The notes under the pieces are model-generated. The model did not search any database and was not told the DNA's origin. It was given only the letters and a program-made list of their open reading frames with translations. A DNA stretch of 64,000 nt from the NCBI GenBank assembly GCA_963764725.1, contig CAVXTM010000015.1, forward strand, positions 64,001 to 128,000, read 5' to 3'. The position numbers were made by a program, and so were the translations under genes. Shown one piece after another: positions 9,430 through 58,187 of the stretch (positions are counted from its first letter, which is position 1; every line of letters starts with the position of its first letter). This DNA comes from an uncultured Gammaproteobacteria bacterium. GTDB taxonomy: Bacteria > Pseudomonadota > Gammaproteobacteria > JACCXJ01.

Positions 9430-10230
9430 GTGACTAGAACATACGACGCGAGCGCCGTGGCGGTTCTGGCGCGCAGCAAACGCGATCTCGCGATCGCCGC
9501 CATCGTAGTCTTCTGTGTCTCCCTCGGGCTTTATCTAGACGGGGATTGCACACGTATTGAACAGTATTTCCTCGGCGCCATCGCGTGGTGCTTTTTATTC
9601 GGGCTTTTGCAATTCGAGACCCCCGCCATTCGTATGCAGGTCGGGGTGGCCGTCGCGGTGGCGACCTTGTGCGAGTACTCCTTCGCGCCCCTCTATCATA
9701 TCTACACCTATCGCTTCGACAATGTTCCCGCCTACGTCCCGCCCGGTCACGGTATGGTGTATCTGACGGCGGTGGCGCTTGCCCGATCCGCGCTCTTCGA
9801 GCGCTACGGCACGCGCATTGCGCGCGTGACGCTCGTAATCGGGGCGTGCTGGGCATTATGGGGCGTGACCTACGCGGAACGCGCCGATACGGGCGGGGCA
9901 GTGCTATTCCTGGTGTTCTGCGGCTTTTACTTTGTTGGGCGCTCACCCCTTCTTTACATCGCGGCCTTCTATATCACGAGCTACTTGGAGATCGTGGGCA
10001 CCTATTCGGGCGCTTGGGCTTGGGCGGTGCATTGGCCCTCTTGGGGCAATCTACCTCAAGCCAATCCGCCGAGCGGCATCGCCGCCGGATATTGCTTCCT
10101 CGACACAATCGCGCTATTCGGCGCTCCCATCTTGGCGCGATTCATCACCTACGGCGGCACCGCGCTCCGGCGCCTGCAGCCTGTCCCCATGGGCGTAATC
10201 CAGGTGCCTTCCGCGCGCGACAGCGGCTAA
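9430..10230 (+). CDS. Uncharacterised multi-pass membrane protein
   Basis: Several hydrophobic segments with YVPPGHG and NPPSGIA motifs. Confidence 0.65.
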   Translation: MTRTYDASAVAVLARSKRDLAIAAIVVFCVSLGLYLDGDCTRIEQYFLGAIAWCFLFGLLQFETPAIRMQVGVAVAVATLCEYSFAPLYHIYTYRFDNVPAYVPPGHGMVYLTAVALARSALFERYGTRIARVTLVIGACWALWGVTYAERADTGGAVLFLVFCGFYFVGRSPLLYIAAFYITSYLEIVGTYSGAWAWAVHWPSWGNLPQANPPSGIAAGYCFLDTIALFGAPILARFITYGGTALRRLQPVPMGVIQVPSARDSG

Positions 10231-10395
10231 TCGCACGCCTCGACCCTCCCACGCACGCCGCGGGCGGCTTCTCGCGGTGCCGTAATCATTGTGCGACGCA
10301 CAATACTCGCGCTAAAATCATTGTGCACGGCAATACGGCTCTGATGGGGTCCGGCCGCTATCTTTCCAACTTCGATTTTAGCAATGGAGGATGCA

Positions 10396-26017: not shown

Positions 26018-26640
26018 TTAAGGAAGGGGGTGCTGCACGAAGAATGGCCACACCCAATCGGCTAGATTGAACCCGAAGGGATTGTTGGTCCCATTGGGAT
26101 ATTGATGGGTGACATCGTCAAGAAAAGCGAAGTACAACTCGTTCCCATCGATGTTGCCGGGTTGCGGAATCTGTGCACGTAGCTCTGTCCAGGTTGCACC
26201 GGTCAAGGTCGTGACCGGAGTAGCTTCAAGGTTGAAGGAGTCGAGATTCACCAGGATCCGGTTCTTGATCTGCGGGATCTTGTCGAGATCCGCGGGATTC
26301 AGTGGTAACTCCGTTATCGTAGGCATTCCCAAAGGGATCAGAAAACTGTTGATCGCCTCAAGCCCATTACCGTCCAGGGTGCCAATAGAAAAATACGCAG
26401 AAAGATTGCGGTGCCCGACCAGCGTTTCATGCACCTCGTCCAAACCTGACGTGTGGCAAGCCACCGCCGCGATGAAATCCGAGGCCTCGATGCCTAGACG
26501 TGCACATATTCCCCCGCCGATCGAGAACCCTGCCACATACACGCGCTTGGGATCGGTCGAAAGCTGTTGGATCACGTCATCACCGATTTGACGGATGAGC
26601 TTCACATCATCGGCAGGCCAAGGAGACGTCGCGGGATAGC
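26018..26640 (-). pseudogene. PHB-depolymerase/LpqC-type esterase, N-terminally truncated
   Basis: ADDVKLIRQI...DPKRVYVAGFSIGG, late His, ends WPFFVQHPLP. The N-terminal FHG region and signal peptide are missing. It abuts a CAGGAGAA leader out of frame. Confidence 0.7.
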
Positions 26641-26711
26641 GTTTTCAGGAGATTCTCCTGTGACTACTCGGGACATCGGTTGAAATGAGACGTTGGAATT
26701 CCTTTGAAGGG

Positions 26712-26750
26712 ACTGGGCTGCCGCCCCGGATGTTGAAACCGCAGCCCAGT
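26712..26750. terminator. Stem-loop after the secreted protein gene
   Basis: ACTGGGCTGC...GCAGCCCAGT inverted repeat. Confidence 0.45.
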
Positions 26751-26774
26751 TTCATTACACCTACTGGCTCTGAA

Positions 26775-27212
26775 CTAGGACAGGTGCCACGTTACTAATG
26801 TTGATGCCGTTAATATCACGGCACTCCATAACGCTTCTGTAGGAAACCAACGGTTAGTAGCGTCTTTGGAGATCGCCACGAAGAAGGCGTCTTGCGCTCC
26901 TGGCACATCGGAGGCAAATAGGGAAGTAGCGCCATCCGGGGCCTCGCGGATGTCAACCTTTACCTTTTCCGGCGAGGTAGCAAGGGGGCGTATGAGCATC
27001 ACGCTCAGTTTTTCGGGACCCGCTCCCAGGTCGGTCACATTGGCCTTAACCGTGACGGTTAACGCTGGGCATGCGAGCCGGTAAATATCCTCGGAGTTCA
27101 CGGCACCTCCCAGCGCACCGTTGACAGTGAATGCTTGTGCTAAGGACGCGCCGCCCATGCCGCCAAGTAGGACTGCTGCTGCACCCATGGTTCTAAGCGT
27201 ATTCGCTTTCAT
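26775..27212 (-). CDS. Secreted hypothetical protein
   Basis: AAGGAG RBS and signal peptide MKANTLRTMGAAAVLLGGMGGASLAQA. C-terminus may be frameshifted. Confidence 0.75.
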   Translation of the reverse strand: MKANTLRTMGAAAVLLGGMGGASLAQAFTVNGALGGAVNSEDIYRLACPALTVTVKANVTDLGAGPEKLSVMLIRPLATSPEKVKVDIREAPDGATSLFASDVPGAQDAFFVAISKDATNRWFPTEALWSAVILTASTLVTWHLS

Positions 27213-27259
27213 GATAGACTCCTTACCGTTAGCAATTGCTAACAATTAACGTCATAACA

Positions 27260-27427
27260 ATGCTGAAGTAGTCCTTCGCTGGACTGTTCAGCGTGGAAAG
27301 CAAAAGTGCGTCTTTTGCCTTCCCCCTTTGTTTTTCAATCATTGCCGGATTGAAAAACGCCGGCGCTCCCTGTGCCGCTTGCAGGCTGCCGCAAACGAGC
27401 GCCGTTTCCGGCAGCCTGTCAATTTCT
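27260..27427 (-). repeat. Repeat A copy 1: three-hairpin leader (candidate structured RNA)
   Basis: Homologous to 31621-31790. Hairpins at 27262-27292, 27330-27358 and 27382-27418. Confidence 0.85.
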
Positions 27428-27496
27428 TCGGTATCCCACGTTTCCTGGCCTCGTCCCTGACTACCGCGAGAGCCATATCCTTTCACCTGCTTGCCG

Positions 27497-28433
27497 CTAT
27501 TCGGTGTCCACCCGGTGTAGCTCTTGGTTCAACCGGTTTGCGGCTACGGAACGAATGGTCTCGTCTACATCAGAAAGCGCCTCTTGAAGCAGGGCGATCC
27601 CCTGATCCTTTGATTTCGCATTCTCGACGGCCATGATCCGAACCTCGGCGGATGGGTCCCGCAGGGCCCGCCATAAATGCCCCATCACCTCGGGCCCTCC
27701 GCGCATGGCCAGAGCCTGCACGCCATAAGCCCGCACGCTGGCGTCGTCGTCTGTCAGCGCCGTATCTAGGACCGCAGCGACAGCGCCGTCCTCTTCGGCT
27801 GTTCCGCTATCCGTGAGGGCCGCGATGGCTTGGCGACGCATCTGCGGATCTTCGTCGCGACTCATCGCCAGGAAATGGTCGGTCAACGCTTTATCCATTG
27901 GAGGTTCCGCGGCGGTTGCAGGCTTACCGGCTTTCCACGTTTCCCTGGTTGCTGTCAACGCCGACGGTGTTTGCGGGCGCGCTCTGTTGTCCCCTGGCAC
28001 CTCCACCTTGCACGTTGCCAAGTACCCACACTTCCTTCGGGAGAGAGGAAGACGAATATGCTGTGCCGCCGTAACGAAACATGAAGTCGGCCTCGGGACC
28101 GAATAAGCGCTCTATGGCTTGCCTTACTGGAAGGTTCGCGAAGGACACGGTCACCAATCCCGCGAACGGCCAGGAGTGGTGAAACCGGATCCCGGTCTGT
28201 TCTGTAATCTCGGTCAGCACTTGCATCCATGTTCCCGCCTTTGCCTCAACACTGAGCAGACCGTCTCGAAAGCTAACCCGCACCGTCGTGGCATTAGGAC
28301 GCTCAGACCTGAGCGTTGCGGACAGGCTGTCACGAGAACTCTCCGTCGATGCTTCTGCCGCCAGCCAGGTGGCGAGGATCGCCGGGACTGTAAGGCTAAG
28401 GAGCCCAGCTTTACCTAGTGTCATTCTCTTCAT
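27497..28433 (-). CDS. Secreted protein with STN/secretin-N-like domain and HEAT repeats (split by a frameshift near 27950-28020)
   Basis: ORF from MKRMTLGKAG with GLLSVEA...VLTEITEQTGIRF...VTVSFANLPVRQAIERL, continuing in an overlapping frame with ALxDxxxxVR HEAT repeats. Confidence 0.7.
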
Positions 28434-28488
28434 GCTTAATGCCCATCGCATTGCGTTGATAACAAGTCGCTCTCGTCGCACGTCGTTT

Positions 28489-28698
28489 TTATAAGAAGTA
28501 CCTGGCGACCAGCTCGCGACCCGCCCGGGTGATAAACCCGTCGTCGCTGATGAGACCAAGCTCCTGGCAGACGAGGAAGGGCATCCCGGGCATACCCTTG
28601 GGCAAATACACGGTCCCATCGCCGTAGCGGCAGGCGAGAACCCGGACCAGCTCCCTCTCGCTTGGGCTTGACATCTGATGAATCGGATAAGTGTTCAT
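28489..28698 (-). CDS. Small 69-aa hypothetical protein, copy 1 (possibly winged-helix-like)
   Basis: GGAGGAGG RBS. 64/69 aa identical to the copy at 35172-35381 with frame conserved. Confidence 0.75.
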   Translation of the reverse strand: MNTYPIHQMSSPSERELVRVLACRYGDGTVYLPKGMPGMPFLVCQELGLISDDGFITRAGRELVARYFL

Positions 28699-28846
28699 GG
28701 GACTACCTCCTCCAAGTGACGGTCGCGATCGTGCGTCGATTAGCGTGTCTCATGTACCTCCTTTTCCTATGCTTGATAAGGCGGTGCCGCATCCTCAACA
28801 ACTACCTCTCGTCGCATGCCAGGGAATTCGATTCCCCTTGAATGTA

Positions 28847-28874
28847 TATTTCTCGCGCAGCCGGAAAAGGTTCA
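28847..28874 (-). promoter_or_regulatory. ECF-type promoter TGAACC-N16-GAAATA
   Basis: TGAACC TTTTCCGGCTGCGCGA GAAATA. Same boxes and spacing as the motif upstream of the ECF sigma gene. Confidence 0.8.
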
Positions 28875-29222
28875 TTTCTGAGAGCCACCGTGTGGGCGGA
28901 CCAGCGGTTACAGCTCTAGGAGGAGATAGCAGCGATGAACTCTCACGGATGCGTTTGCACATCCCGTATGCTTGGTAGGTTGAACAGTACCAAAGGAGCC
29001 AAGCTCACTTTATTTTGCTGCGCCCTCGGCCTGCCGCGGGGGCTTGGCCTCGCATCGCTGCCCAGTCATTCGCTCTATCGCCGTGTAATTAATCGATCCT
29101 GGCCCATTTTCAGTTCCTGGGCGTGCTGGTCGGCTGTCGATCACGTGGTTTGGTGCGCCGCGGACCGCGCTTGGGTGTAGCTATTAGTCCGACCCGGTGG
29201 AGGCCGCGGCCCTACACGTGGC

Positions 29223-29335
29223 TCACTGACCCGCTGTCACCGGAATGGCGGCGCCGTTCACGAACGACGCCGCTTCCCACCAGCAGCGACACGTACGCCG
29301 CCACCTCGTCAGCGGTGCGGTAGCGGCCCACCGGG
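29223..29335 (-). pseudogene. SDR oxidoreductase C-terminal remnant
   Basis: Translates (with one frameshift) as VPVGRYRTADEVAAYVSLLV..EAASFVNGAAIPVTAGQ*, a typical SDR C-terminus. Confidence 0.6.
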
Positions 29336-29689
29336 ACAGGGCGTGCCCTACTGGGTCATCACCTCGACGTCGATGGCGCTGTCGAACAGCCAGGCCTTGC
29401 TCCAGACGTCGCGGGTCTTGAACCAGAATCCACTGGCTGCCGCGGTCGCTGCCGACCGCTTCGGTCCTGTACGACCACGGCCCGCCACTGTCACCGGGGA
29501 CCGCGTTGAGGTCTTCCATGGCTACGAGGTTCGACACCAGCCCGCCCGAGAAGGTGAGCGAGGTGACGAACGTCGAGTACACCTGGTCGCACGTCCGGGT
29601 GCCCTGCCTCGGCTGTACACGCAGTAGGTGTTGTTCACAGCTGCGGAGGTCTCCACCGAGTTGACCTCCCTGAGGTCGGTCGGGCTGGC
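29325..29689 (-). repeat. 365-bp direct repeat: 3' part of the S1 protease gene
   Basis: Nearly identical to 33711-34075 (about three differences by eye). Confidence 0.95.
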
Positions 29690-29697
29690 TGACCTCC

Positions 29698-31328
29698 TCA
29701 GTACAGGCACCGCGGCCCGGCGCTGAACTGCACGACCGGATCGGTAACGGGGTGGTTCGCCAGCGTCGGGTCACCCACGTCGCCAGTGTCGAGCGTCCGA
29801 TACAGCACGCCGGCGCTCGAGTACCAGTCCCAGATCGCGTCGTTCGAGCGAGATCGCGGCGCCGACTGAGACCCAGCCGAGGGCCGGATCGTCCGTCGAG
29901 TCCGGCGTGGTCTGCGACGTGTACACACCGGTGCTCTCCAGCCCGACGTGCTGGCGGCAGCGCGGCCCGAACACTGCGGTCACGTTGTTGCCGGTGTCGT
30001 CGAAGACCTGCTCGAGCGACTGGCGCATGAGGTCGGTGAAGTCGTCCTTCGTCGTGTATCGCCCCGTCCGTCCCACCATCAGTTGCTCGCCGGTCGGCCA
30101 CGGCGCGATCCACTGGTCGTCGATGACGCTGTCCTCGAGGTCGACGCGCACGAAGGTCTCGGTCTCGATGAACGGCACGCCGCCGTACATGAGGGTCAGC
30201 AGCGTGCCGAAGTACGAGCAGCGATCGAGGCGGCCGATCGGCTCGTAGACGGCGCGGCAGCTCTCGTCGACGAAGGCGTCTACCGCGGCGTTCCAACCGC
30301 TCGACCACGACGCCGTCGCCATCGTGATGCGGTGAGAGTAGTACGGCGTGTCGCCGAGGCCGTTGGCGTTCGTGTCGACCCAGATGTCGTTGCCGATCAG
30401 CACGTCGTCGGTCATGTCCATGTTGGCGTCGATGACGAGTCGCTTCGTCGGCGCGGCGAGCACGCCGAGGAACCAGTCGGCGTTCTGGATTGCGCCTTTC
30501 GCGCCAGCCGACGTGCCGGTGAAGATCACGTCGGTCGCGGCGTCCAGGTCGGGCACCACGGTGCCGTCGTCCGTCGTCCACGCCGGGTTCGCGTTCTCCT
30601 TGCGCAGCATGCGCCGCGCCGCCGACAGGATGGTGTGCCCGCGGTGGTCGATCGAGAAGTCGTTGCCGGCCCCCGCGGGGTCGGCGTAGTCCACGTCGCT
30701 CCCACGGCCGAGCCACGAGTCGGAGCTGCAGTAGTACATCCACACGTGCGTCCACTCGCGGAAGGCGTTGGCCGGATCGTCGGAGGTCATGCCCGCCGCG
30801 GCGCCGTTCAGCGGCAGGTCGATGACGCCGTCGGCGTTCCAGTCCGTGCTGCATCTTGTTGGCCTGGTACGGCAGGTTGCCCTGCTGCCCGCACCACCGC
30901 TCCAGGCACGCCGTGTGCGAGCTGCAGCTCCCGCCGCCCTGCACGTGCACGATCCATTTGGTCACGTCGGCGCCGCTGCCCGGGCGGACGTAGAACACGC
31001 CGGGCGAGCCGTCGTTGCACACCGCGTTTGGGAAGTCGGCGACGGGCACCGTGACGCGCCGCAGGCAGTCGCTCGTCGCCGGGTTGCAGCCCGCGATCTG
31101 TGACGCCCCCGCCGGCACGCTGGCTCCGGCGCCGCACATCGCGCCCCAGGCCGCGGATCCGGGCGCATCGGCCGCGGTCAGGATGTTGGAGTAGAGCGCT
31201 GCGCGAGCATCGTGGCTCAAGGCGGCGGCGATGAGTGCGAACGCGAGGGCGAGAGAGCGGCGCGGCTGCGACGGCGGTGAGATGCCGGCCCCGGCGCGCG
31301 GCGCGTCGATCGTCCTCTTGTCCAGCAT
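29698..31328 (-). CDS. Secreted pectinacetylesterase/Notum-family hydrolase (frameshifted near 30855 and 29850)
   Basis: AVCNDGSPGVFYVR, WIVHVQGGGSC, NAFREWTHVWMYYCSSDSWLG and GTSAG nucleophile, spread over three ORF frames. GC-richer than the flanking leaders. Confidence 0.85.
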
Positions 31329-31419
31329 GATAATCTCCACTTTCCTTGGGGTGGCGGTGGCCTGTCGCCCGATATAACCCTGTGCCATCCGAGAAGGTTG
31401 GCCACTTGCGCCCAAGGAG

Positions 31420-31541
31420 GACGGTGGGGTGCCAAAACCGGCGGCTGCGTCATACCCCCAATAGATGCCAATCAACGTCTGGTCCACGGTACGGCGCGAG
31501 TTTGAAGGCACGGTTCCCATCAACTCCGGCGTCGCAATCAC
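31420..31541 (-). pseudogene. Internal fragment of a vanadium-dependent haloperoxidase-like gene
   Basis: RTVDQTLIGIYWGYDAAAGFGTPP resembles the VCPO motif QTxxGxFWAYDGxxxxGTPP. Confidence 0.6.
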
Positions 31542-31620
31542 ACTTCTGAAGTTATATGCTTTTCCATGGATATTCTCCTGTAGTCGTTAACTTTGTTAAC
31601 GGTTGCTCTATAAAATAAGA

Positions 31621-31790
31621 ATGCTGAGGAAGTCCTTCGCTGGACTCTTCAGCGTGGCAAGCAAGAGCGGGTCTTGTGCTTTCGCCTTTTGTTTTTCAAT
31701 CGTTGCCGGATTGAAAAAACGCCGGTACCTCCGTGTACCGCTTGCAGGCTGCCGCAAACCAGCGCGGTTTCCGGCAGCCTGTCAATTTCG
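31621..31790 (-). repeat. Repeat A copy 2
   Basis: Homologous to 27260-27427, with a compensatory base-pair change in the large hairpin. Confidence 0.85.
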
Positions 31791-31801
31791 TCAGTCTCCA
31801 T

Positions 31802-32095
31802 CCTAGTGTCATTCTCTTCATGCTTAATGCCCATCGCATAACGTTGATAACAAGTCGCTCTCGTCGCATGCCAGGGAATTCGATTCCCCTTGAATCTATA
31901 TTTCCCACGCCGCCGGAAAAGGTTCATTTCTGAGAAGCCACCGTGTGGGCGGACCAGCGGTTACAACGCTAGGAGGAGATAGCAGCGATGAACATCCCAC
32001 GGATGCGTTGACACTCCCGCATGCTTGGTAGGTTGAGCAGAGTAGATGAAAGGTTTTAGAGGAGCTCTATCCGTACCCCGGGGAGTAATAAACTT
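31802..32095 (-). repeat. Repeat B copy 2
   Basis: Homologous to 35585-35879. Retains only the MKRMTLG codons before joining repeat A. Confidence 0.9.
31899..31926 (-). promoter_or_regulatory. ECF-type promoter TGAACC-N16-GAAATA
   Basis: TGAACC TTTTCCGGCGGCGTGG GAAATA. Confidence 0.8.
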
Positions 32096-32726
32096 GCGCT
32101 TAGGATTGGCACGACGTGAATAAGCTCAAGGTCGTTCCGCTTGGCGACGGTGCGATCTCTATGTTTACGCCCAGCGCGAGCGCTCGTCGGCAATGAATGT
32201 TCTAAGCCAAGATTGAGCGCGTGACAGGCGACGGCGCGAGGGGAGGCCGCGGGGGCGGCCGCGATTAGACGCTAATGTCACGGGATAAGCCATCGCTGAG
32301 CAGGGAGAGCTACCATTGTAAAATTATCCGAGCCTGGCCCGTTTACCCGCGTCGACGCCCCCGAGCTCGCGCAAGCGCCCTGGGGACGGAGGGGCCAGTC
32401 ACGCTGAGAATCATCGCGAAGGACAAATACAAGCGTTCCGTTGCCGAGGCCTAACCGTGCGGATGCCCGTTGACCGCTCGCGCCACGCGGTCCTGCATGA
32501 TCCGTCGCTGGCCCGGCAGGCCGCGCGCCGCGCAATCTCGGTCCGACGGTCAACTCGCCCTACGCCGACTTCACGCCGTACATCTCCCGGGGCGGCCGCT
32601 ACCTGTCCTTCACGTCGGAGCGCCCGGGCATCGTGCCGGCGGTGATCGAAGGCCGCCCACCCGATGCCATCTATCAGGTCGATCTCGCGGACGCGCGCTT
32701 GGCGAATGACCAGAGCCGCGTCGCGA

Positions 32727-33671
32727 TCACTGCACGTCGAAGAACGCGAGCAGCTTGGCGGAAGCATCGAAGCCGTTGGCCGCAATCGGCCAAAGATGGC
32801 CAAGTCCGAACACCTCGGTGAACTGGATCTTCGGGTTCGCGATCCCGGCCTGGCAGTCGGTGGAGAAGAGCGCGTGAGTCGCCTGCGGCAGCGGCGGCTG
32901 CGGCAGCAACGACCCGACGATAAACTCGGTGCAGCCGTCGTTGGAGTACCAGCGACTGAACGAATCCCCCGCCGACAGCCGAAAGCCCCCGGCGGCCACC
33001 GGATCGCCGCCGGCGATCGGCACCGTCCCGTCGGCGTCACCGTGCACGATGAACACCGGCAACAACGTTCCCGCGGGCGGCGGGGGCGGCTCGGCGATTG
33101 TCGAGCCGTAGAACCCGGAAACCACCCCGATCGCGAGGAAGGTTGCCGGCGTGTCCGCGCCGAGCGCGTGGACGAAGTGGCCGCCCATCGAGAATCCGGC
33201 GGCGAGCACCCGCGCGGGATCCGCGTTGAGGTCCGGGCTCGTCGCGAGGTGGTCGATCAGCTCCTCGGCATAGAGCAGATCGTCTCTCACCGCGCCTGTG
33301 GTGTCCCAGGTGCCGCGCGTCACCACGCCCATGCCGAGCGTGCCCTGCGCGAAGACGACGATCTTGCCCTGCTGATTGGCGAGCGTGGCCATGCGGAGCA
33401 TGCCCGGCCGGTTCGAGAACGAGCTCGCCGACTGGCCGGCGCCGTGGAACATGACGACGAGCGGATACGGCACGGCGCGCGCGGGGTCGTAGCCCGCGGG
33501 CAACCGCAGGATGTACGCGCGCTGATCGCCGTTCACGACGTCGAATCGGAGCGCGTACGTCCCGGCCGCCTGCGGGATGGGATCGGTGACTGCATGCGCT
33601 AGAGACGCGCCGCCCATGCTGACAAGTAGGACTACTGCTGCACCAACATTTCTAAACAAATTCGCTTTCAT
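32727..33671 (-). CDS. Secreted PHB-depolymerase/LpqC-type esterase
   Basis: PLVVMFHG, DPARVLAAGFSMGG, HGDADGTVP, GLGHLWP. RBS and signal peptide are shared with the gene starting at 27212. Confidence 0.88.
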   Translation of the reverse strand: MKANLFRNVGAAVVLLVSMGGASLAHAVTDPIPQAAGTYALRFDVVNGDQRAYILRLPAGYDPARAVPYPLVVMFHGAGQSASSFSNRPGMLRMATLANQQGKIVVFAQGTLGMGVVTRGTWDTTGAVRDDLLYAEELIDHLATSPDLNADPARVLAAGFSMGGHFVHALGADTPATFLAIGVVSGFYGSTIAEPPPPPAGTLLPVFIVHGDADGTVPIAGGDPVAAGGFRLSAGDSFSRWYSNDGCTEFIVGSLLPQPPLPQATHALFSTDCQAGIANPKIQFTEVFGLGHLWPIAANGFDASAKLLAFFDVQ

Positions 33672-33733
33672 GATAGACTCCTTACCGTTAGCAATCGCTA
33701 ACAATTAACTGGCCCACCGGGACAGGGCGTGCC

Positions 33734-34984
33734 CTACTGGGTCATCACCTCGACGTCGATGGCGCTGTCGAACAGCCAGGCCTTGCTCCAGACGTCGCGG
33801 GTCTTGAACCAGATCCACTGGCTGCCGCGGTCGCTGCCGACCGCTTCGGTACTGTACGACCACGGCCCGCCACTGTCACCGGGGACCGCGTTGAGGTCTT
33901 CCATGGCTACGAGGTTCGACACCAGCCCGCCCGAGAAGGTGAGCGAGGTGACGAACGTCGAGTACACCTGGTCGCACGTCCGGGTGCCCTGCCTCCGGCT
34001 GTACACGCAGTAGGTGTTGTTCACAGCTGCGGAGGTCTCCACCGAGTTGACCTCCCTGAGGTCGGTCGGGCTGGCGTAGTACTCGGCGAGGTCGGCGTGC
34101 TGTACTCCGTTTTGATCAGGTAGAGTCGTGTGCCATTGCACGTCGCCGTTCAGACCCTCGTGCTCGTCCTCGAAAACCATGTCGTAGCTCGGTCCACCTT
34201 GGGGCTGGTGGTAGTGGTCTATTCCGCTGCAGTGGGCCGCGGTGGTCACACCCGTCTCATTGGTGAGCTGGGACTGCACGGTGAAGCCGCTGGTGCACTC
34301 GGAGGAGCTGCCGTGCACATACGCGCCGCCGTAGGTGTGGAACTCCTCGACGACGTCGTGGCCAACGAATGTGACCCGCACGCCGTCGCTCAGCGACGGC
34401 GGCAGTTCGGCTCCGGGCGTCTGTTCGCCGGTGACCGCGACCTCGATCAGACCGCTTGGCAGTACCGCGGAGCCAACCAGCTGATAGCCGGCGTCGCCGA
34501 AGAACCTCACCACGGCGACGGCGCGGTTCGCCAGTTCGGCGGCCGAGTACTTCCGGCCGCCGGTCAGACCGACGTTCAGGCCGGCATCGGTAGCCAGCGA
34601 TCGTGCGGCCGACGGCACGGCACCCTTGAAGCGCAGGTAGCTCCTCCCGCCCGGCGAGGCGGCGAACTCGGCACCGGCGAACTTGGTGGGAAACTGCGCC
34701 TCGATCTGGTCCTGCAGCTCACCGAATGCATGCTGATCGTCCAGGTGCCGTCGGGTGGCGGCGAGACTCCAGCCTTTGTCGTCGGCGATGATGGCGATGT
34801 CGATCGCCTCGGCGGTAGCCTGATCGTGCAACTCGACACTAGGGTCGGGGTCGACGGTGGCGGCCGTCGCCGGCGTGGCAAAGCTCGCGATTGCGATCAG
34901 GAGCGCCAGGGCGCGTGAAGCTGCACCTATTCCAACGAGTAGCGATATCGCCACACCTATACCTTTTAGCGTCTTCGTATTCAT
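33734..34984 (-). CDS. Secreted S1 serine protease (alpha-lytic/streptogrisin-like) with prodomain
   Basis: CTSGF, TAAHC, GDSGG. CAGGAGAA RBS. Confidence 0.9.
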   Translation of the reverse strand: MNTKTLKGIGVAISLLVGIGAASRALALLIAIASFATPATAATVDPDPSVELHDQATAEAIDIAIIADDKGWSLAATRRHLDDQHAFGELQDQIEAQFPTKFAGAEFAASPGGRSYLRFKGAVPSAARSLATDAGLNVGLTGGRKYSAAELANRAVAVVRFFGDAGYQLVGSAVLPSGLIEVAVTGEQTPGAELPPSLSDGVRVTFVGHDVVEEFHTYGGAYVHGSSSECTSGFTVQSQLTNETGVTTAAHCSGIDHYHQPQGGPSYDMVFEDEHEGLNGDVQWHTTLPDQNGVQHADLAEYYASPTDLREVNSVETSAAVNNTYCVYSRRQGTRTCDQVYSTFVTSLTFSGGLVSNLVAMEDLNAVPGDSGGPWSYSTEAVGSDRGSQWIWFKTRDVWSKAWLFDSAIDVEVMTQ

Positions 34985-35171
34985 GATAAGTTTCTCCTGC
35001 CGTTAGTTAACCTAACGGCCATCTGTGTTAACAACAATTGCTGGTGAGTCATAACCCAGGTTTTGGCGGCGACGAGTTGGATCTTTGGGTTTCATGATTC
35101 GCTGTGCAGCCGCAATCTGTCGTTCTCTGCGCTCGTTGTCGTCAGATTGCATTCACGAAGTCGTGTCGTTT

Positions 35172-35381
35172 TTATAAGAAGTACCTGGCGACCAGCTCGC
35201 GACCCGCCCGGGTAATAAACCCGTCGGCGCTGATGAGACCGAGCTCCTGGCAGGCCAGGAAGAGCATCCCGGGCATACCCTTGGGAAAATACACGGTCCC
35301 ATCGCCGTAGCGGCAGGCGAGAACCCGGACCAGCTCCCTCTCGCTTGGGCTTGACATCTGATGATTCGGGTAAGTGTTCAT
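35172..35381 (-). CDS. Small 69-aa hypothetical protein, copy 2
   Basis: Paralogue of 28489-28698 with the same RBS. Confidence 0.75.
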   Translation of the reverse strand: MNTYPNHQMSSPSERELVRVLACRYGDGTVYFPKGMPGMLFLACQELGLISADGFITRAGRELVARYFL

Positions 35382-35506
35382 GGGGCTACCTCCTCCAAGT
35401 GACGTCGCGGTCGCTCGATGAATTCAATGTCCGATTTACCCACCTCTGGAGCCGGCCTGCAGTGCCCGTGTTCAGAAGTTCAGCAGAGGTAGTTCAATTG
35501 GGACAG

Positions 35507-35879
35507 GAACCCCTCCGTCGATGCTTCTGCCGCCGGCCAGATGGCGAGGATCGCCGGGACTGTAAGGCGAAGGAGCCCGGCTTTACCTAGTGTCATTCTC
35601 TTCATCCTTAATGCCCATCGCATAACGTTGATAACAAGTCGCTCTCGTCGCATGCCAGGGAATTCGATTCCCCTTGAATCTATATTTCCCGCGCAGCCGG
35701 AAAAGGTTCATTTCTGAGAGCTACCGTGTGGGCGGACCAGCGGTTACAACGCTAGGAGGAGATAGCAGCGATGAACATCACACGGATGCGTTTGCACATC
35801 CCGTATGCTTGGTAGGTTGAACAGAATAGATGAAAGGTTATAGAGGAGACCCAGCCGTATACCGGGGGGTAATAAACTT
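35507..35879 (-). repeat. Repeat B copy 3 plus signal-peptide remnant of the STN-HEAT gene
   Basis: Homologous to 28336-28480 + 28817-28987. The ATG at 35605 gives MKRMTLGKAGLLRLTVPAILAIWPAAEASTE, then unrelated sequence and a stop. Confidence 0.9.
35683..35710 (-). promoter_or_regulatory. ECF-type promoter TGAACC-N16-GAAATA
   Basis: TGAACC TTTTCCGGCTGCGCGG GAAATA. Confidence 0.8.
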
Positions 35880-36107
35880 TTGCTCCACCTCTCGTCGTAA
35901 GAATCGCAGCAGAAGTGGCTCAGCCGGCGCGTAAGAAGCGTCTGTCGCCAAGCTCGTAGAGAGCACCTCTCGGGACAACGCGGTGCTCTGCATTCTCAGG
36001 GGTCACCCATTCCTTGACCCACCCATTCCAGACGGGCGATCTCCTTCACCAGACATCTGTACACCGCTAGGCTGGCTAGTTTGCCGCGTGACCGAGGGCC
36101 GCAGCGA

Positions 36108-37339
36108 CTAGCAGCTCGGACGCTGCATTAGTTTTGCTAATGCGCTACACGCATCGACCATCCTGATCTCATTCGTTGATGCGGATCCGGCTGCGGTCAA
36201 TAAACCGATTATCTCCGCAGGCCCAGATGGGGTTGTTTTTCCAGTAGCAAGGCGATGACACCACTCACGTGCGCGGTCGCCACGGAGCTACCCGACAAGA
36301 AATCATATCCGTCCTGCGGCGCGGTGGTCAGGATCTCGAAACCGGGAGCGGCGAGAATATCCTTGTTCGCTCGCCACTGAGGAGGAGGCATGCGGCCGTT
36401 AGCGTCGCTTGCGCCCACTGCGATGACGTTTTCCATGGACGCTGGGAATCCCGGACCGGGTGCTTGCGGTTCGGCCACGGCCGCCACCACGACTATTCCG
36501 CGGCCGGTGGCCGTTTCAATGAGGCGCCCCAGCAGTCGGTCGACGGGCCCAGTGAGGCTTAAGTTTACCACCTGGGCGCTGGTAGTTATCGCAAAGTCGA
36601 TGGCCTTGGCCAGGGTCCAACTGCTGCAGACGGCTTGCGTGTCACCTGCAGGATACCAGCACGCTTTCTCTGCGAGGATTTGCGCCTCGGGGGCGATGCC
36701 GAAGATCCCTATGTCGTTATCGGCCCTGGCGGCGATGATTCCGGCGACGGCGGTACCGTGCGGATCCTGCGAAAACGACTGCTCGCCATTTTCAACGAAG
36801 TTCGCCACCTTCATGATCTGCCCGCGCAGATCGGGATGACCCTTGTCTACGCCGGTGTCCACGATAGCGATCCTGACCCCGCGGCCGGTGCTCACACCGT
36901 GCGCGGTATCGGCGCGAATGAGCTCGGCTCCGTGTTGCATGGACGCATAGGGATCTGTGTGAGCCGATCCCAGTCCTGCGAAGACTTGGTTAATCTGTAC
37001 CGACTCTACGCGCGGATCGGCGGCCAGTTCGTCCAGTACGACATCCAGTGGTTTCCCCGAGGGGACCTCAAACACGATGCATTGCACGCGGATGGAAGAA
37101 AGCGGGAATTCTCCGACCAGCGTCAGGCCGTAGTTCGCGCCCAGTTCACGCGTGAACAGCGGCCAATGCGACTCGGCTTCTGCCGCCAGGGTGACGATGA
37201 GCTGCCGTTCCCGCAGTTGTTTGGGTGCGGCTTCGGCAGCGGTCTGTGACATCAATGGGAACCCTGCCCGGTCCGCACAACCGACCATCAACGCAAACCC
37301 CAGCAGCCACAGGCCGTTGCGAGCGCGCCGGCTCTTCAC
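36108..37339 (-). CDS. S8 subtilase lipoprotein (frameshift near 36225)
   Basis: Lipobox MVGC, IVDTG, HGTAVAG, NLSL, SGSSVATAHVSG. C-terminus continues in another frame as ...MVDACSALAKLMQRPSC*. Confidence 0.9.
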
Positions 37340-38031
37340 CGTGTTGCTGTGGCGGCGCGCTCTGCAAACCGCACCTTGGGATGGGCGCGCAGCTCCCCGA
37401 GCACCTGTGCCAGCTGCGATGGCGAGTGCTTTGGCAGAGCCACGACGTATACTCCGAGCGAGTTGGGACCTTGTACGATGCTGGCATGCATGGCGAGCAA
37501 GAGCGAGCGGATCTCTTTTTCTTTTGTGTCCTCGCTGAGGGCGATCTGCACTCGGGGGACATTATTGGGATCCGCTTTTGTTGGGGATGAAAGCGTTTGA
37601 TAGTACTCAGGCTGTTTATAGGGCATAAGCACAACCAGGGCTCCTACGAGCACGACCACGGTAACTGTCTGCATGCCTAGCATCCATCGCATCTCCGCGG
37701 GGCTTTGTCTGATGGATTGGACAAACCGCGTAAACCTATCGCGCCAAGCTATGGCCCGTCTTTGTGCCGGCGAAGAAGCGTTGACCTCTTCCATCAGGCT
37801 ATGGAAGTGGCCGGGCGAAGGAACCCACTCTTGATCGTCCATGGTTTGCACGCTGTGAGCAATGTCTCGACACCACTGCAACTCTTTTTGGCAGCGAAGG
37901 CAGACCGCAAGGTGCGCTTCCACTTCGATGGCTTCCCGTGGATCTAAGCTTCCGTTGACATACCACGGTAAGATCTCGATGATGTGCCGATGGGCGTCAT
38001 TCGCTGAGGTTAATGTGGTTTCGTTGCTCAT
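37336..38031 (-). CDS. Zinc-finger (zf-HC2) transmembrane anti-sigma factor
   Basis: LPWYVNGSL, HLAVCLRC (HxxxCxxC), single transmembrane segment, periplasmic domain. Confidence 0.9.
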   Translation of the reverse strand: MSNETTLTSANDAHRHIIEILPWYVNGSLDPREAIEVEAHLAVCLRCQKELQWCRDIAHSVQTMDDQEWVPSPGHFHSLMEEVNASSPAQRRAIAWRDRFTRFVQSIRQSPAEMRWMLGMQTVTVVVLVGALVVLMPYKQPEYYQTLSSPTKADPNNVPRVQIALSEDTKEKEIRSLLLAMHASIVQGPNSLGVYVVALPKHSPSQLAQVLGELRAHPKVRFAERAATATR

Positions 38032-38035
38032 GCCT

Positions 38036-38677
38036 TCACCTTTGTTCGGTTAAGATTTCAGCCAGCCGCCGGCGCGCGTGAAACATCCGTGTTTTGATGG
38101 TATTAACCGGAGCCCCCACGATCTCCGCGATCTCTAGGTAGGGGAGTCCATGGAAGAAGGTGAGTTCGATTACGGCGCGATGCTCGGCAGACAAAGCCGC
38201 GATCGCTTTGGCGAGCGTTCGGCTCCGTTCATGGCGCTCCAGATCCTGTTCCGGCGTTTCGTGATCCGACGCGTCGTTGGGGACACGTTCTTCGCAACTC
38301 GACTGAAGTTCGCCATCGGGCCCAGAGCTATGTCGCGAGGCTTGCTGGAGGGCTTTGAGGCCCTTCTTATGCGCAATGCCAAAGAGCCAGCTAGATAAAC
38401 GACAACTGGAATCGAAGCGGCCGGCATTGAGCCACAAGGTCAACATGACATCGCTTAGCGCCTCTTCGGTAAGCTCGCGGCTCTTCAGCAGTCTCAAAAG
38501 ATACCGTCCTAGCATCGGCGCGTAACGACGGTAGAGTACCTCAAAGGCTTGGCGGTCCCGCGCGGCCACGCGCATCATCATGGCGCCATCCGTTTCTGCA
38601 CCGGAAAAGTCGCAGTCCGTCACCTTTGGGTACTTACCTAACAGGCCCGAGTGATTCTTACATGCTACTGAAATCAT
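38036..38677 (-). CDS. ECF RNA polymerase sigma factor
   Basis: AFEVLYRRY, SSWLFGIA, region 4 YLEIAEIVGAPVNTIKTRMFHARRRL. Start uncertain. Confidence 0.93.
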   Translation of the reverse strand: MISVACKNHSGLLGKYPKVTDCDFSGAETDGAMMMRVAARDRQAFEVLYRRYAPMLGRYLLRLLKSRELTEEALSDVMLTLWLNAGRFDSSCRLSSWLFGIAHKKGLKALQQASRHSSGPDGELQSSCEERVPNDASDHETPEQDLERHERSRTLAKAIAALSAEHRAVIELTFFHGLPYLEIAEIVGAPVNTIKTRMFHARRRLAEILTEQR

Positions 38678-38753
38678 GAGTTATTCGCCAGCCTCGACAC
38701 TATGCGACCCAGAAACCTCATGCCGCGAGGTTCTGTTTGAGCTTCTCCCCAAG

Positions 38754-38781
38754 TATTTCCCGATTTCGCACCAAAGGTTCA
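38754..38781 (-). promoter_or_regulatory. Putative autoregulatory ECF promoter TGAACC-N16-GAAATA
   Basis: TGAACC TTTGGTGCGAAATCGG GAAATA, ~77 bp upstream of the sigma ORF, outside any repeat B homology. Confidence 0.8.
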
Positions 38782-38896
38782 AACCATCGGGTGTTTTCGC
38801 GAAAGTGTTAAATAGGCACGAGGCGAGAGCGCGCGTTGCGTTGAAGCTTTGCGGTTGACAGAATACCCGCCGAAAACCACTAGGGAAAGCGAAAAA

Positions 38897-40204
38897 ATGG
38901 GAACAGAGCAAAAAAGCCGTAGCGGCATTGCTTCGTTCTTCTGCCTATCGCTGGCCGCTATGGTATCTAGCCCATGCCATGGGGAGAGCTCTCTCATCGA
39001 TGCGCTAAGCACCGGCCAGTTTGACCTCTTTTTGCGCTACCGGTTCGAACACGTAGACGATGGCAAACCCGGCATCGAAGACGCATATGCCAACACGCTA
39101 AGAACTGCGCTCGGTTACAATACCGGGAGTTTTTATGACCTGGGCGTGTACCTGCAGCTAGAAGACGTACGCGCCCTGGGGAGGGAGTCGTTTAATGACG
39201 GGGGCGCAAACGGCGTTACCGATCATGCGCTGGTGGTGGATCCGGAAGGCACGGAGATCAATCAGGCCAATCTTCGCTACGAGGGCCTGCCAAGGACCGT
39301 CTTACGTGTGGGGCGTCAGGAGATCGCCCACCGAGAAGCGCCCCTGCACCGCTTCGTGGGGAACGTGCTTTGGCGGCAAAACTGGCAGTCCTTTGACGCC
39401 TTCCGGATCCTGAACCTCAGCATTCCCTACGCCGCTCTGGACTATGCCTATGTGTGGAACGTCAACACCATCTTTGGAGAGGGTAACCCCTTGCCCGGTC
39501 GCAGCGACTTTCCTATGGACAGCCATTTGTTGCGGGCCGAATATACGGGTCTCGCCTTAGGAAAGCTTGAGGCGTACGCGTACCTGCTCGATTTCGATGA
39601 CAGCGTCTCAGAGCGTTTTTCCACGGCCACCGGCGGCCTGCGTTTGGAAGGAGATCAGGGTTTAACGCCAAACGCTACGCTGACCTATGCCGGCGAATTC
39701 GCCCATCAGTGCGATTACGCTGATAATTCAAACGACATTGATGTCAATTACTATCTTGGCGAGGTGGGCGTCAGCTACAACCTCGGCTGGCAGTTACAAA
39801 CCGTCGCCTTGAATGTTGGCTACGAGGTGTTAGAGGGTGACGGCGGGGTCGACGCGTTTCAAACACCTTTGGGCACTAATCACGCCTTCCAGGGATGGGC
39901 GGATCGCTTCTTGATCACGCCGGGTGATGGTGTCGAAGACCTCTATGTCACGCTGAAGCTAAGCGCCTTTGGGGCGGTTCTGATCGCGGTTTATCACGAT
40001 TTTAACGCCGATAATGAGGGGTACGATTACGGGCACGAATGGGATATCGCGTTAGAGCGGCCGTTCGGCAGGGGTTTCCTGGTCGGCGTCAGTTACGCCC
40101 ACTACGAGGCGGATCGCAATGCTACCAATGTGCTTCGCAACAGCGCCGATGGACAGGCGTTTGATTTATCTAAGACCTGGGCCTATCTGCAGTTCCGATT
40201 TTAG
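38897..40204 (+). CDS. Outer-membrane beta-barrel, alginate export family
   Basis: LRYRFEHVD, DPEGTEINQA, FVGNVLWRQNWQSFDA, TPLGTNHAFQGWAD, C-terminal Phe. Confidence 0.85.
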   Translation: MGTEQKSRSGIASFFCLSLAAMVSSPCHGESSLIDALSTGQFDLFLRYRFEHVDDGKPGIEDAYANTLRTALGYNTGSFYDLGVYLQLEDVRALGRESFNDGGANGVTDHALVVDPEGTEINQANLRYEGLPRTVLRVGRQEIAHREAPLHRFVGNVLWRQNWQSFDAFRILNLSIPYAALDYAYVWNVNTIFGEGNPLPGRSDFPMDSHLLRAEYTGLALGKLEAYAYLLDFDDSVSERFSTATGGLRLEGDQGLTPNATLTYAGEFAHQCDYADNSNDIDVNYYLGEVGVSYNLGWQLQTVALNVGYEVLEGDGGVDAFQTPLGTNHAFQGWADRFLITPGDGVEDLYVTLKLSAFGAVLIAVYHDFNADNEGYDYGHEWDIALERPFGRGFLVGVSYAHYEADRNATNVLRNSADGQAFDLSKTWAYLQFRF

Positions 40205-40252: not shown

Positions 40253-43439
<3,187 letters not shown>

Positions 43440-57984: not shown

Positions 57985-58061
<77 letters not shown>

Positions 58062-58111
58062 AAGCGGTGCGGTAAACCCCAAACGATACAGCGAGATGGA
58101 AAAAGCGACCT

Positions 58112-58187
58112 GGGGCCATAGCTCAGCTGGGAGAGCACCTGCTTTGCAAGCAGGGGGTCGTCGGTTCGATCCCGACTGGCTCCACCA
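58112..58187 (+). tRNA. tRNA-Ala(TGC)
   Basis: Cloverleaf with TTTGCAA anticodon loop and CCA end. Confidence 0.97.

Follow-up and report, generated by a model that had tools for sequence, protein, structure and literature searches.

Integrons are built from the integrase IntI, an attI site, a Pc promoter and attC cassettes, and polymorphic toxin loci of the CdiA-CT and Rhs types carry arrays of displaced 'orphan' modules. Repetitive extragenic palindromic sequences and bacterial interspersed mosaic elements (REP/BIME), enterobacterial repetitive intergenic consensus (ERIC) sequences and Correia elements are dispersed palindromic intergenic repeats, and replacement-type flexible genomic islands and homology-facilitated illegitimate recombination are known processes. 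Here we analyze a locus that resembles each of these in part. It occupies positions 26018-38781 of a 64,000-nucleotide (nt) stretch of DNA from an uncultured gammaproteobacterium (C15:64001-128000, hereafter the window; the genome, G000, comprises 4.21 Mb in 19 contigs, with a GC content of 0.59 and an estimated contamination of 1.76%), and it combines an operon for a sigma factor of the extracytoplasmic function (ECF) class with an array of repeated leader sequences and secreted hydrolase genes. Same-genus and other comparison genomes are labeled G001 and onward, loci carry L-numbers and sequencing runs X-numbers. Our preferred reading, to which we assign a probability of about two in three, is that the locus is a strain-variable, recombination-scrambled accessory part of an ECF sigma regulon, with no dedicated capture device.

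A variable slot behind an ECF sigma operon

Read along the minus strand from 38.7 to 26.0 kb, the locus begins with genes for the ECF sigma factor, a zf-HC2 anti-sigma factor and an S8 subtilase, followed by three units that are each headed by a copy of a repeat, B; a convergent histidine-kinase gene closes the stretch on its 26.0-kb side. An earlier interpretation made from the letters of this DNA, called the sequence-only reading below, had recognized the sigma/anti-sigma/subtilase operon, which Pfam bears out, and had placed every recognizable gene on the minus strand, which the open reading frame (ORF) list and Pfam confirm for 26018-38677.

Same-genus genomes keep the two flanks of the slot, the histidine-kinase end and the subtilase operon, at 92-94% identity, and the content between them differs. 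The flank-to-flank span is 1.7 kb in G007, about 3.3 kb in L041, 7.8 kb in G001 and 10.3 kb in the window; the claims made here and below for G001, G007 and G008 depend on unpublished genomes. The 1.7 kb of G007 hold one promoter and one secreted-protein gene. The slot of L041, a metagenome contig that is 95% identical, carries B with a gene of 168 amino acids (aa), then B, an STN/HEAT gene, a hairpin element (A) and a small secreted protein, and is without GC-rich cargo. In G001, a first part comprises a divergent 580-aa gene and then B, a 69-aa ORF, a multihaem cytochrome gene, a Tll0287-like gene and a membrane-protein gene, and a second part comprises B, an intact STN/HEAT gene, A, and a signal peptide fused to a 357-aa protein. 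A paralogous copy of this G001-type layout lies on C11 of the window's own genome, and in G013, which belongs to another genus and is labeled Gammaproteobacteria bacterium, STN/HEAT is followed by A, an MNTK leader and a native 152-aa protein. What follows a given leader varies accordingly: A and an MKAN signal peptide precede a native protein of about 145 aa in the window, L041 and L043, an esterase in the window and in contigs of run X1, and the 357-aa protein in G001, and an MNTK-type leader precedes either the native 152-aa protein (G013) or an S1 protease (window). Shared leaders with differing cargo between strains and species, which the sequence-only reading had put forward as support, are thus found, with relatives' slot content differing between the same flanks. 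The final 100-190 nt of the histidine-kinase gene occur a second time, kilobases away from it, in L014 (G007:C206, 9073-9187), L043 (1138-1325) and L017 (G003:C94, 4167-4269); in G007 and L043 this extra end adjoins the end of hsdR, so that direct repeats bracket the variable block, and the window has no such copy.

Repeat B occurs three times on the minus strand, at 28797-28987 (B1), 31849-32100 (B2) and 35633-35879 (B3), and the segments aligned by self-comparison (28797-28987, 31849-32040 and 35633-35824) are 91-95% identical to one another. B3 consists of a conserved upstream part, an ECF-type promoter at 35683-35710 and a 5′ untranslated region (UTR); the B2 promoter lies at 31899-31926, and B1 has the -10 element GAGAAATA in place of GGGAAATA. 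An alignment of nine B copies from this genome and its relatives gives an invariant core of TGAACCTTT-N12-GGGAAATA, after which comes a short hairpin. The same motif with identical spacing, TGAACC-N15-GGAAATA, stands upstream of the sigma gene (38754-38781, minus strand; C15:102781), where it is kept in G001, G007 and G003. Across the 4.2-Mb genome the motif has five strict matches against 0.056 expected, namely B2, B3, the copies of B on C11 and C5, and the site upstream of the sigma gene. It recurs in two non-B-like contexts within the slot, ahead of the 580-aa gene of G001 (a formyltransferase/enoyl-CoA-hydratase) and ahead of the gene for a 319-aa secreted protein of G007.

The sigma protein contains sigma-70 regions 2 and 4 only and has a zf-HC2 anti-sigma factor adjacent to it (Pfam, and NCBIfam for the anti-sigma factor); this, and the promoter motif shared by B and the sigma gene, are the features by which an ECF sigma regulon is recognized. 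Autoregulation is usual among ECF sigma factors, and the prediction of their target promoters is by common agreement based on it (PMC7826278). Since the motif in B matches the one upstream of the sigma gene, control of the B units by the ECF factor, as proposed in the sequence-only reading, is supported at the level of the motif, and B would be a sigma-dependent promoter together with its 5′ UTR. General scans of the region were uninformative, with 10 terminator-like sites against 9.7 expected and 7 sigma-70 promoter-like sites against 3.4 expected. In the C5 copy of B (L002, 7421-9347), an insertion sequence (DDE_Tnp_1_4), its own transposase divided between two frames, interrupts the repeat upstream of the promoter; the promoter half is still directed at a 168-aa gene, and in L041 that gene occupies the subtilase slot.

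All three genes of the sigma operon lie on the minus strand. The sigma gene (38036-38677; Pfam Sigma70_r2, r4_2 and ECF) is intact, encodes 213 aa and has an equal length in G001 and G007. The anti-sigma gene (37336-38031; zf-HC2, 2.3e-8; NCBIfam anti-sigma) is followed by the subtilase gene (36209-37339; Peptidase_S8, 4e-37), an arrangement conserved in G001, G007 and L041. Alignment to these three shows that a 1-nt deletion near 36224, specific to the window, removes the last ~30 residues of the subtilase, and run X4 has one additional base at 36223. The C-terminus of the anti-sigma factor is similar to the pro-domain found at subtilase N-termini (Fervidolysin_NPro-like, E 3.5e-4); the subtilase gene is the next one, and the subtilase may act upon this factor or be restrained by it.

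Enzyme genes joined to native leaders

The hairpin, ribosome-binding site (RBS) and signal peptide that recur in the array are the native 5′ end of a paralogous family of secreted proteins of ~150 aa, whose signal peptides start MKAN... or MNTK...; this follows from the finding that all forward-strand matches to A in this genome precede leaders of this family or remnants of them. A native member lies in the window (26775-27212, minus strand; 145 aa from its ATG, MKAN-type signal peptide), with paralogues on C18 and in G013. On C18 (312881-317763, minus strand), four such genes stand in tandem ahead of a diverged STN/HEAT-like gene; a match to the A model precedes three of the four, the hairpin and RBS stand directly before the start codon in two, and no TGAACC...GGAAATA promoter was seen at this tandem array. 

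One chimera is an intact 416-aa S1 protease of the alpha-lytic/streptogrisin type (33734-34984, minus strand), in which ~22 native MNTK signal-peptide codons are fused in frame to a body rich in G and C at third codon positions (high GC3), with the junction at ~34917-34920. The single sequence gave no Pfam or PDB hit and its predicted structure was unusable (predicted local distance difference test score, pLDDT, 36.1), but a profile of 43 homologues matches alpha-lytic protease in the PDB (E 2.3e-17); H251 and S371 are invariant and D281 is nearly so, which places the protein in the S1 family. Its two parts have different affinities. Residues 1-27 are 93% identical to a native gene of G013, and residues 45-416 find their best species-level match, at 70% identity, in a metagenome-assembled genome (MAG) labeled 'Proteobacteria bacterium', whose S1 gene is the only DNA that it has in common with the window's genome.

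A second intact fusion, at 32727-33671 (minus strand; leader repeat 33586-33709), joins a native MKAN-type signal peptide in frame to the high-GC3 mature domain of a polyhydroxybutyrate (PHB)-depolymerase-type esterase of 325 aa (Pfam Esterase_PHB; NCBIfam NF050058 at 1.2e-26 over profile positions 4-276, a family-level match that lies below the equivalog cut-off). Homologues at 74-91% identity have the MKAN signal peptide in common, whereas those at 69-77%, outgroup ones at 75-77% included, have a lipoprotein-like N-terminus instead, and homology to both groups starts at one xTDPxPQ motif. The nearest named relative is from a Kofleriaceae (Myxococcota) MAG at 61% identity.

The pectinacetylesterase gene (29771-31328, minus strand; GC3 ~0.91) retains a GC-rich signal peptide of its own; a +1 frameshift close to 30851 puts its two halves in different frames, and both match PF03283 (PAE; 2.4e-13 and 8.2e-8). 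An intact 479-aa version (P0124) is present in another assembly, and the nearest named relative is from a Polyangiaceae (Myxococcota) MAG at 49%. Contigs of runs X1, X2 and X4 carry the gene at 97-98% identity; those of X1 and X4 omit 31260-31463, 204 nt that include the start codon and signal peptide, and therefore the pectinacetylesterase of these strains has another 5′ end.

The remaining cargo is fragmentary, and here the identities given in the sequence-only reading hold in part: there are two PHB-type esterase genes (one of them a fragment), the S1 protease and the pectinacetylesterase, but the 'haloperoxidase' and 'SDR' (short-chain dehydrogenase/reductase) fragments have no Pfam hit. 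The second esterase gene follows a decayed leader (CAGGAGAA, with CTG for ATG) at 26018-26767 (minus strand); it is truncated at its N-terminus, its 195-aa ORF covers NCBIfam profile positions 86-136 only, and its lesions differ between the window, L043 and G008. The S1 gene's final 343 nt, together with 23 nt of downstream sequence, recur at 99% identity at 29325-29689 (minus strand), and fragments of the same kind, P0082 and P0083, occur in other assemblies. Next to it, the SDR-like C-terminal fragment (29223-29324, minus strand) is short and was recognized by eye from its translation; it showed no similarity to the SDR gene that follows an S1 homologue in L019, of which it might have been a remnant. 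A 772-aa ORF was rejected as a protein, being an out-of-frame artefact that strings together an unverified short fragment, the frameshifted pectinacetylesterase, the S1 3′ copy and the SDR-like tail.

The observation that the cargo is GC-richer than its leaders, made in the earlier reading, is upheld by GC3, which is 0.825 in the S1 gene, ~0.90 in the esterase and 0.91 in the pectinacetylesterase, against 0.63-0.77 in local native genes; over 1555 long ORFs of the genome the mean is 0.717 with a standard deviation of 0.078, and 1.1% reach 0.90. Within the esterase and S1 genes, GC3 rises from 0.4-0.55 to 0.85-1.0 over 20-30 codons, where homology to the native leaders ends (in the esterase, 0.4-0.5 over the first 20 codons and 0.85-1.0 after them). 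Comparable steps occur within ~40 codons in the 357-aa gene of G001 and within ~80 codons in the 319-aa gene of G007. The proposal that the cargo is foreign stands as regards composition and the Myxococcota-labeled MAGs that hold its nearest named relatives, but these relatives are only 49-61% identical.

These data bear on a rival account in which the array arose by plain tandem duplication and decay, with the GC-rich genes as native paralogues that evolve fast or have an atypical composition, and with nothing acquired. B, A, the leaders, the 69-aa ORF and STN/HEAT are indeed duplicated native DNA with a paralogous locus on C11, many parts are decayed, esterase relatives exist within the family (46-58% in G013 and 36% in G003), and about 1% of native long ORFs likewise reach a GC3 of 0.90. 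However, the sharp GC3 steps fall inside single ORFs, exactly at the end of native-leader homology, the pectinacetylesterase is present in none of eight same-genus species genomes (0/8), the S1 body has its best species-level match in a MAG without other DNA in common, and the closest outgroup esterases have a different N-terminus. We therefore consider an origin by duplication and decay rather unlikely.

A further possibility is that the chimeras were produced during metagenome assembly, by joining another organism's GC-rich pieces at repeats. The assembly is in 19 contigs with the contamination given above, its source reads were not found among the runs, and the four runs compared gave almost no coverage of the S1 body and its copy (29236-29702 and 33906-34839). 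Against this, repeat copies diverge by 5-13%, which would prevent their collapse in assembly, and native DNA flanks each GC-rich piece on both sides. The joins also recur elsewhere with their own substitutions: the 416-aa S1 fusion is found on three other contigs, of 8,991, 33,189 and 635,808 nt, where it differs at 2, 6 and 7 residues, and other contigs carry a frameshifted S1 fusion (P0034), copies of the S1 3′ fragment, the intact pectinacetylesterase, and a protein (P0062) that reads through the same junction of cytochrome stub, leader and S1 as in the window. Of these, P0034 and P0083 come from a contig of 63,049 nt, P0062 from one of 20,030 nt, and P0082 and P0124 from that of 8,991 nt. 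Contigs of runs X1, X4 and X17 span the junction of leader and pectinacetylesterase, and those of X1 and X4 span that of signal peptide and esterase. Alternative joins, with the pectinacetylesterase directly followed by A, or with A followed by the esterase, are seen in contigs from other runs. An assembly artefact is thus extremely improbable.

Element A and the remains of native genes

Element A is ~215 nt long and consists of six hairpins in a run, the last of which (CCGTTAGC..GCTAACGG) abuts the RBS. Copy 1 (27210-27436, minus strand) has all six, with the last directly before the RBS, a minimum free energy of -91.2 kcal/mol (z -7.1) and support from covariation. Copy 2 is part of a composite at 31565-31821 (minus strand), where seven STN/HEAT codons precede six hairpins (31565-31783), with a diverged last hairpin and the RBS (CAGGAGAA); over 27254-27436 and 31615-31799 the two copies are 87.0% identical. 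The 'gttaac...CAGGAGAA' leaders of the array are diverged forms of the last A hairpin. Of the three CAGGAGAA leaders listed in the sequence-only reading, those at 31580 and 34999 have a leader context in common, and the one at 26660 is the decayed leader with a CTG start codon. As a special leader word, CAGGAGAA was ruled out by its frequency, which is at chance level (111 genome copies against ~113 expected).

The structure of A is conserved. In ten copies from two genera, 94.1% of cells pair, compared to 27-47% with partners slid, and compensatory changes occur in 12 of 56 pairs, a number matched by none of 500 shuffles. G002 and G012 are among the sources of copies of A. A covariance model detected, in further families of the class, A-like elements made up of hairpins one to five, and the hairpin repeat is kept across at least five gammaproteobacterial families. 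In an alignment of 43 copies, which was fitted to the covariance model and is hence biased towards the structure, 95.6% of cells pair, compensatory changes occur in 52 of 56 pairs, and the covariation score is 0.471, compared to 0.155 for shuffled and 0.055-0.087 for slid controls. The model matches 32 times in G029, 15 in G039, 11 in G033 and 3 in G026. The neighbors of these matches are unrelated genes, and some matches stand in tandem; the copies are intergenic, some at contig ends (for example L085 1501-1688, L086 1501-1669 and L097 1377-1823). Many copies per genome are thus a property of G029, G039 and G033 and not of the window's genome, where all eight forward-strand matches (8/8) lie upstream of small-secreted-protein-type leaders or their remnants and none is dispersed. 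A metagenome scan with an A-derived pattern returned 35 stretches, of which 2 were real copies (L041 and L043) and 33 arose by chance. Rfam gave no relevant match for A at E<=1 in the window region and no match at E<=0.1 in L041, L021 or six loci with A-like copies. A role as a TnpB/IscB guide RNA was tried and rejected, PF07282 being present in none of five genomes carrying A-like elements (0/5). Element A is a resident copy of a multi-copy, multi-hairpin intergenic repeat located between STN/HEAT and the next gene; the A-like element may be an undescribed structured repeat or RNA.

Self-comparison, ungapped and gapped, reproduced the repeats listed in the sequence-only reading, with three copies of B and two each of A, the RBS with signal peptide (27127-27250 against 33586-33709, 87.1%) and the 69-aa ORF (segments 28482-28731 and 35165-35413, 95.2%). 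B2 and B3 extend into a longer repeat (B2+X2 against B3+X3) of 295 nt at 93.2%, and the STN/HEAT N-terminus at 28341-28480 recurs at 35513-35652 (95.0%) and as a 67-nt stub at 31802-31868 (97%). One repeat was absent from that list: 29325-29689 against 33711-34075 (366 nt, 99.2%), the S1 3′ end copied into unit 2, which is the exception to the divergence of 5-13% between repeat copies. 

The STN/HEAT gene of unit 1 (27497-28433, minus strand), the unit taken as ancestral in the earlier reading, is itself broken by an 8-nt deletion near 27931, as seen in alignment with C11, G001, L041 and L043; its HEAT repeats are solid (HEAT_2, 1.5e-12), but the STN assignment is weak (E 0.042; 14.1 bits, below the Pfam cut-off of 28.4 bits). 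The C11 copy has deletions of 14 nt and 8 nt, so the genome is without an intact copy. The two other units were correctly described: in unit 2, STN/HEAT is lost after seven codons, which are joined to A copy 2, and unit 3 retains the STN/HEAT signal peptide followed by unrelated sequence as a 41-aa ORF (35480-35605, minus strand; repeat 35513-35652). Copy 1 of the 69-aa ORF (28489-28698, minus strand) lies between B1 and STN/HEAT, with the order of B and this ORF the same in G001 and L043. Copy 2 (35172-35381, minus strand) lies within the repeat at 35165-35413, and in G001 and on C11 the 69-aa ORF precedes the multihaem cytochrome operon. What is left of the cytochrome gene here is a stub of 15 native codons, the tail of A and a stop (35012-35095, minus strand; compared with the 231-aa cytochrome of G001).

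The mobility of the repeats themselves was considered as another explanation, in which B, A or both resemble miniature inverted-repeat transposable elements (MITEs) with a promoter or leader facing outward, which move by transposition to positions ahead of genes. This would suit the multiple copies of A-like elements in other families, often in tandem or at contig ends, the joining of the B promoter core to at least three different downstream sequences, the C5 copy of B split by an insertion sequence, and the two further dispersed repeats that flank B2 and B1. In contrast, the matches to A in the window's genome are confined to one kind of leader, no terminal inverted repeats or target duplications were seen around B or A, and matches to B at the DNA level are found in the genus only. 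Furthermore, ~11 nt of the end of B are duplicated on both sides of the copy-1 segment of the 69-aa ORF, which fits a deletion between two B copies. A MITE-like origin is therefore distinctly doubtful.

Other repeats and genes were noted in the surroundings. A dispersed repeat of ~160 nt with a core of ~60 nt lies between the esterase and B2 (32189-32349, no strand assigned; present in many genomes of the family) and, in opposite orientation, at 28989-29104; each copy is directly upstream of a B copy, at a boundary of cargo and native DNA, and repeats with the same core occur in most family genomes and on C1, C13 and C14 of this genome. Short repeats of about 110-130 nt with a REP- or MITE-like look, at 10098-10250 and 12708-12819 of L043, have ~30 and 13 copies across the contigs of the window's genome. 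A type I restriction R subunit gene adjoins the region (window 40253-42925), and tRNA-Ile and tRNA-Ala genes in an rRNA-operon-spacer arrangement are found at 57985-58187.

Joining, decay and known systems

The sequence-only reading had described the locus as a gene-capture platform, functionally like an integron. As a description, 'capture' is apt; a dedicated platform is not supported, as there is no integrase, no fixed junction and a minimum of nine decayed features. In its strongest form, this alternative holds that an unrecognized recombinase inserts cassettes at A or B and so provides them with a host promoter, RBS and export signal. It would account for identical leaders before differing cargo in different strains, for the X1 and X4 strains in which the pectinacetylesterase lies between two A copies (joint 27420|29698), for the conserved, strongly covarying and attC-like hairpin structure of A, and for the chimeric genes in one slot, of which there are at least four across three species. 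Yet a whole-genome search with PF00589 gave 16 matches, none of them in C15:64001-128000 and the nearest at C15:158503, ~30 kb past the window end, and no attC-type palindrome was found at cassette 3′ ends, the sole inverted repeat lying inside a neighboring 451-aa gene; the earlier statement that no integrase or attC site is visible therefore holds within the window. Signal-peptide junctions are scattered, at about codons 3, 7, 22 and 30, and those in A lie ahead of hairpin 1, within hairpin 5 and immediately ahead of hairpin 6; short microhomology is present at some junctions. A lies 5′ of the cargo, and no single junction site is fixed. Whereas integron cassettes are promoterless and depend on one promoter, three B copies, each with a promoter motif, head the three units. 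A-like elements of other families stand beside unrelated housekeeping genes, TnpB is absent from the five genomes checked that carry them, and much of the array is pseudogene debris, with at least nine stubs, fragments or frameshifted genes: the SDR-like tail, the S1 3′ copy, the stubs of STN/HEAT (two) and of the cytochrome gene, the 195-aa esterase fragment, and the broken STN/HEAT (8-nt deletion), subtilase (1-nt deletion) and pectinacetylesterase (+1 frameshift) genes. We regard a dedicated capture platform as highly improbable.

The 451-aa neighbor (38849-40204, plus strand) was considered as a hidden recombinase and rejected, having a signal-peptide-like start, a barrel-like C-terminal end (...YLQFRF) and no match in Pfam or NCBIfam. 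Every family genome has paralogues of it, at 68-72% nucleotide identity, and from these sequence features the protein is probably an outer-membrane barrel.

Our preferred reading of a scrambled part of the regulon can be set out as a series of steps. None of the 'parts' of the array is purpose-built: B is a promoter of the regulon, A belongs to a dispersed hairpin repeat, and the leaders are the 5′ ends of genes in a paralogous family. The ancestral layout would have been two B-driven operons, one with B, the 69-aa ORF and cytochrome genes and the other with B, STN/HEAT, A and a small secreted protein, and simple operons of this kind are seen in G001, L041 and on C11. These would have been duplicated, deleted and re-joined by homologous recombination between repeats of 120-370 nt and by microhomology-based or illegitimate joins, and resident gene bodies would have been replaced by high-GC3 genes for foreign secreted hydrolases. 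In-frame joins behind a live promoter, RBS and signal peptide (S1 and the esterase) may have persisted, with others decaying to stubs and frameshifts. When the sigma factor is released by its anti-sigma factor, the sigma operon and every B unit would be transcribed, and the chimeric hydrolases would be exported by way of their borrowed Sec signal peptides. Of all this, the anatomy, the common promoter motif, the chimeric composition and the differences among strains are observed, and control by this sigma factor, the routes of recombination and selection for export are inferred. As the most economical mechanism, we infer homologous and illegitimate recombination in a variable ECF-regulon slot, with selection keeping enzymes that are expressed and exported in frame. 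A bolder version, which is possible but unlikely, is that the slot is a natural 'expression-and-export trap', where B, A and the leaders serve both as expression signals and as portable homology arms, and foreign enzymes are repeatedly recruited and passed between strains as units, as exchangeable effectors; in this version A, as a structured repeat of five to six hairpins not described before, may itself nucleate the exchanges or control translation of the gene that follows.

Several points weigh against the preferred reading. At most 16% of the sampled words were found in any one run, in addition to the missing source reads; the 1-nt frameshifts in the subtilase and pectinacetylesterase genes could be assembly errors; and the assemblies with the S1 fusion may come from related samples and so may not be fully independent. 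No RNA run was found that contains 28900-35900, and dependence of the units on this sigma factor is deduced from the promoter motif. High GC3 is also seen in ~1-7% of the genome's own long ORFs, and composition alone does not prove foreignness; the best unnamed relatives of the cargo are only 67-77% identical. Finally, an exact boundary between signal peptide and mature domain is common to two fusions in the window and one in G001, which is more regular than random illegitimate joining predicts, although selection could explain it.

If the preferred reading is true, a bacterial regulon gains new secreted enzymes without dedicated machinery, foreign bodies being placed in frame downstream of a promoter, leader and signal peptide that were already resident, with a strain-specific outcome. 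This would parallel exon shuffling, in a bacterium and at the boundary of the signal peptide, occurring several times in one 10-kb slot and visible there in stages from intact to decayed. Two by-products are a promoter motif that predicts the regulon of an uncharacterized module of ECF sigma factor, anti-sigma factor and subtilase, and a multi-hairpin element, absent from Rfam, with strong covariation in five or more gammaproteobacterial families. The titles and abstract openings returned by full-text searching held no description of such a slot.

Among described systems, integrons are similar in having strain-variable, compositionally foreign cargo downstream of resident expression signals, with structured repeats between genes. 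Unlike integrons, the locus has no integrase in the window, no attI/attC boundaries and its own promoter for each unit, and cargo is fused inside resident coding sequences, with variable junctions and much debris. CdiA-CT and Rhs loci likewise combine a constant N-terminal part with exchangeable C-terminal parts and have truncated, displaced copies beside a functional gene, but the constant part is here a leader and signal peptide only, the cargo consists of hydrolases, and there are neither toxin/immunity pairs nor a conserved junction motif. As for REP/BIME, ERIC and Correia elements, A is similarly hairpin-built and intergenic, with relatives that are multi-copy and sometimes tandem in other families; it differs in that, in five families or more, its five distinct hairpins follow one another in the same order and keep their loops, and in having no Rfam match, and in this family it has few copies, all of them located upstream of a single gene family.

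The ECF sigma/anti-sigma modules of PMC7826278, which have autoregulated promoters and regulon genes encoded alongside, also have sigma2 and sigma4 domains, a zf-HC2 anti-sigma factor and a motif upstream of the sigma gene and neighboring genes; in contrast, the regulon neighbors here differ by strain and some are chimeras with foreign bodies. Flexible islands and homology-facilitated recombination show the same conserved flanks around strain-variable content, and long homology on one side of a join with microhomology on the other. The slot differs from such islands in being small (2-10 kb), in lying inside a regulon, and in that its joins give in-frame signal-peptide fusions.

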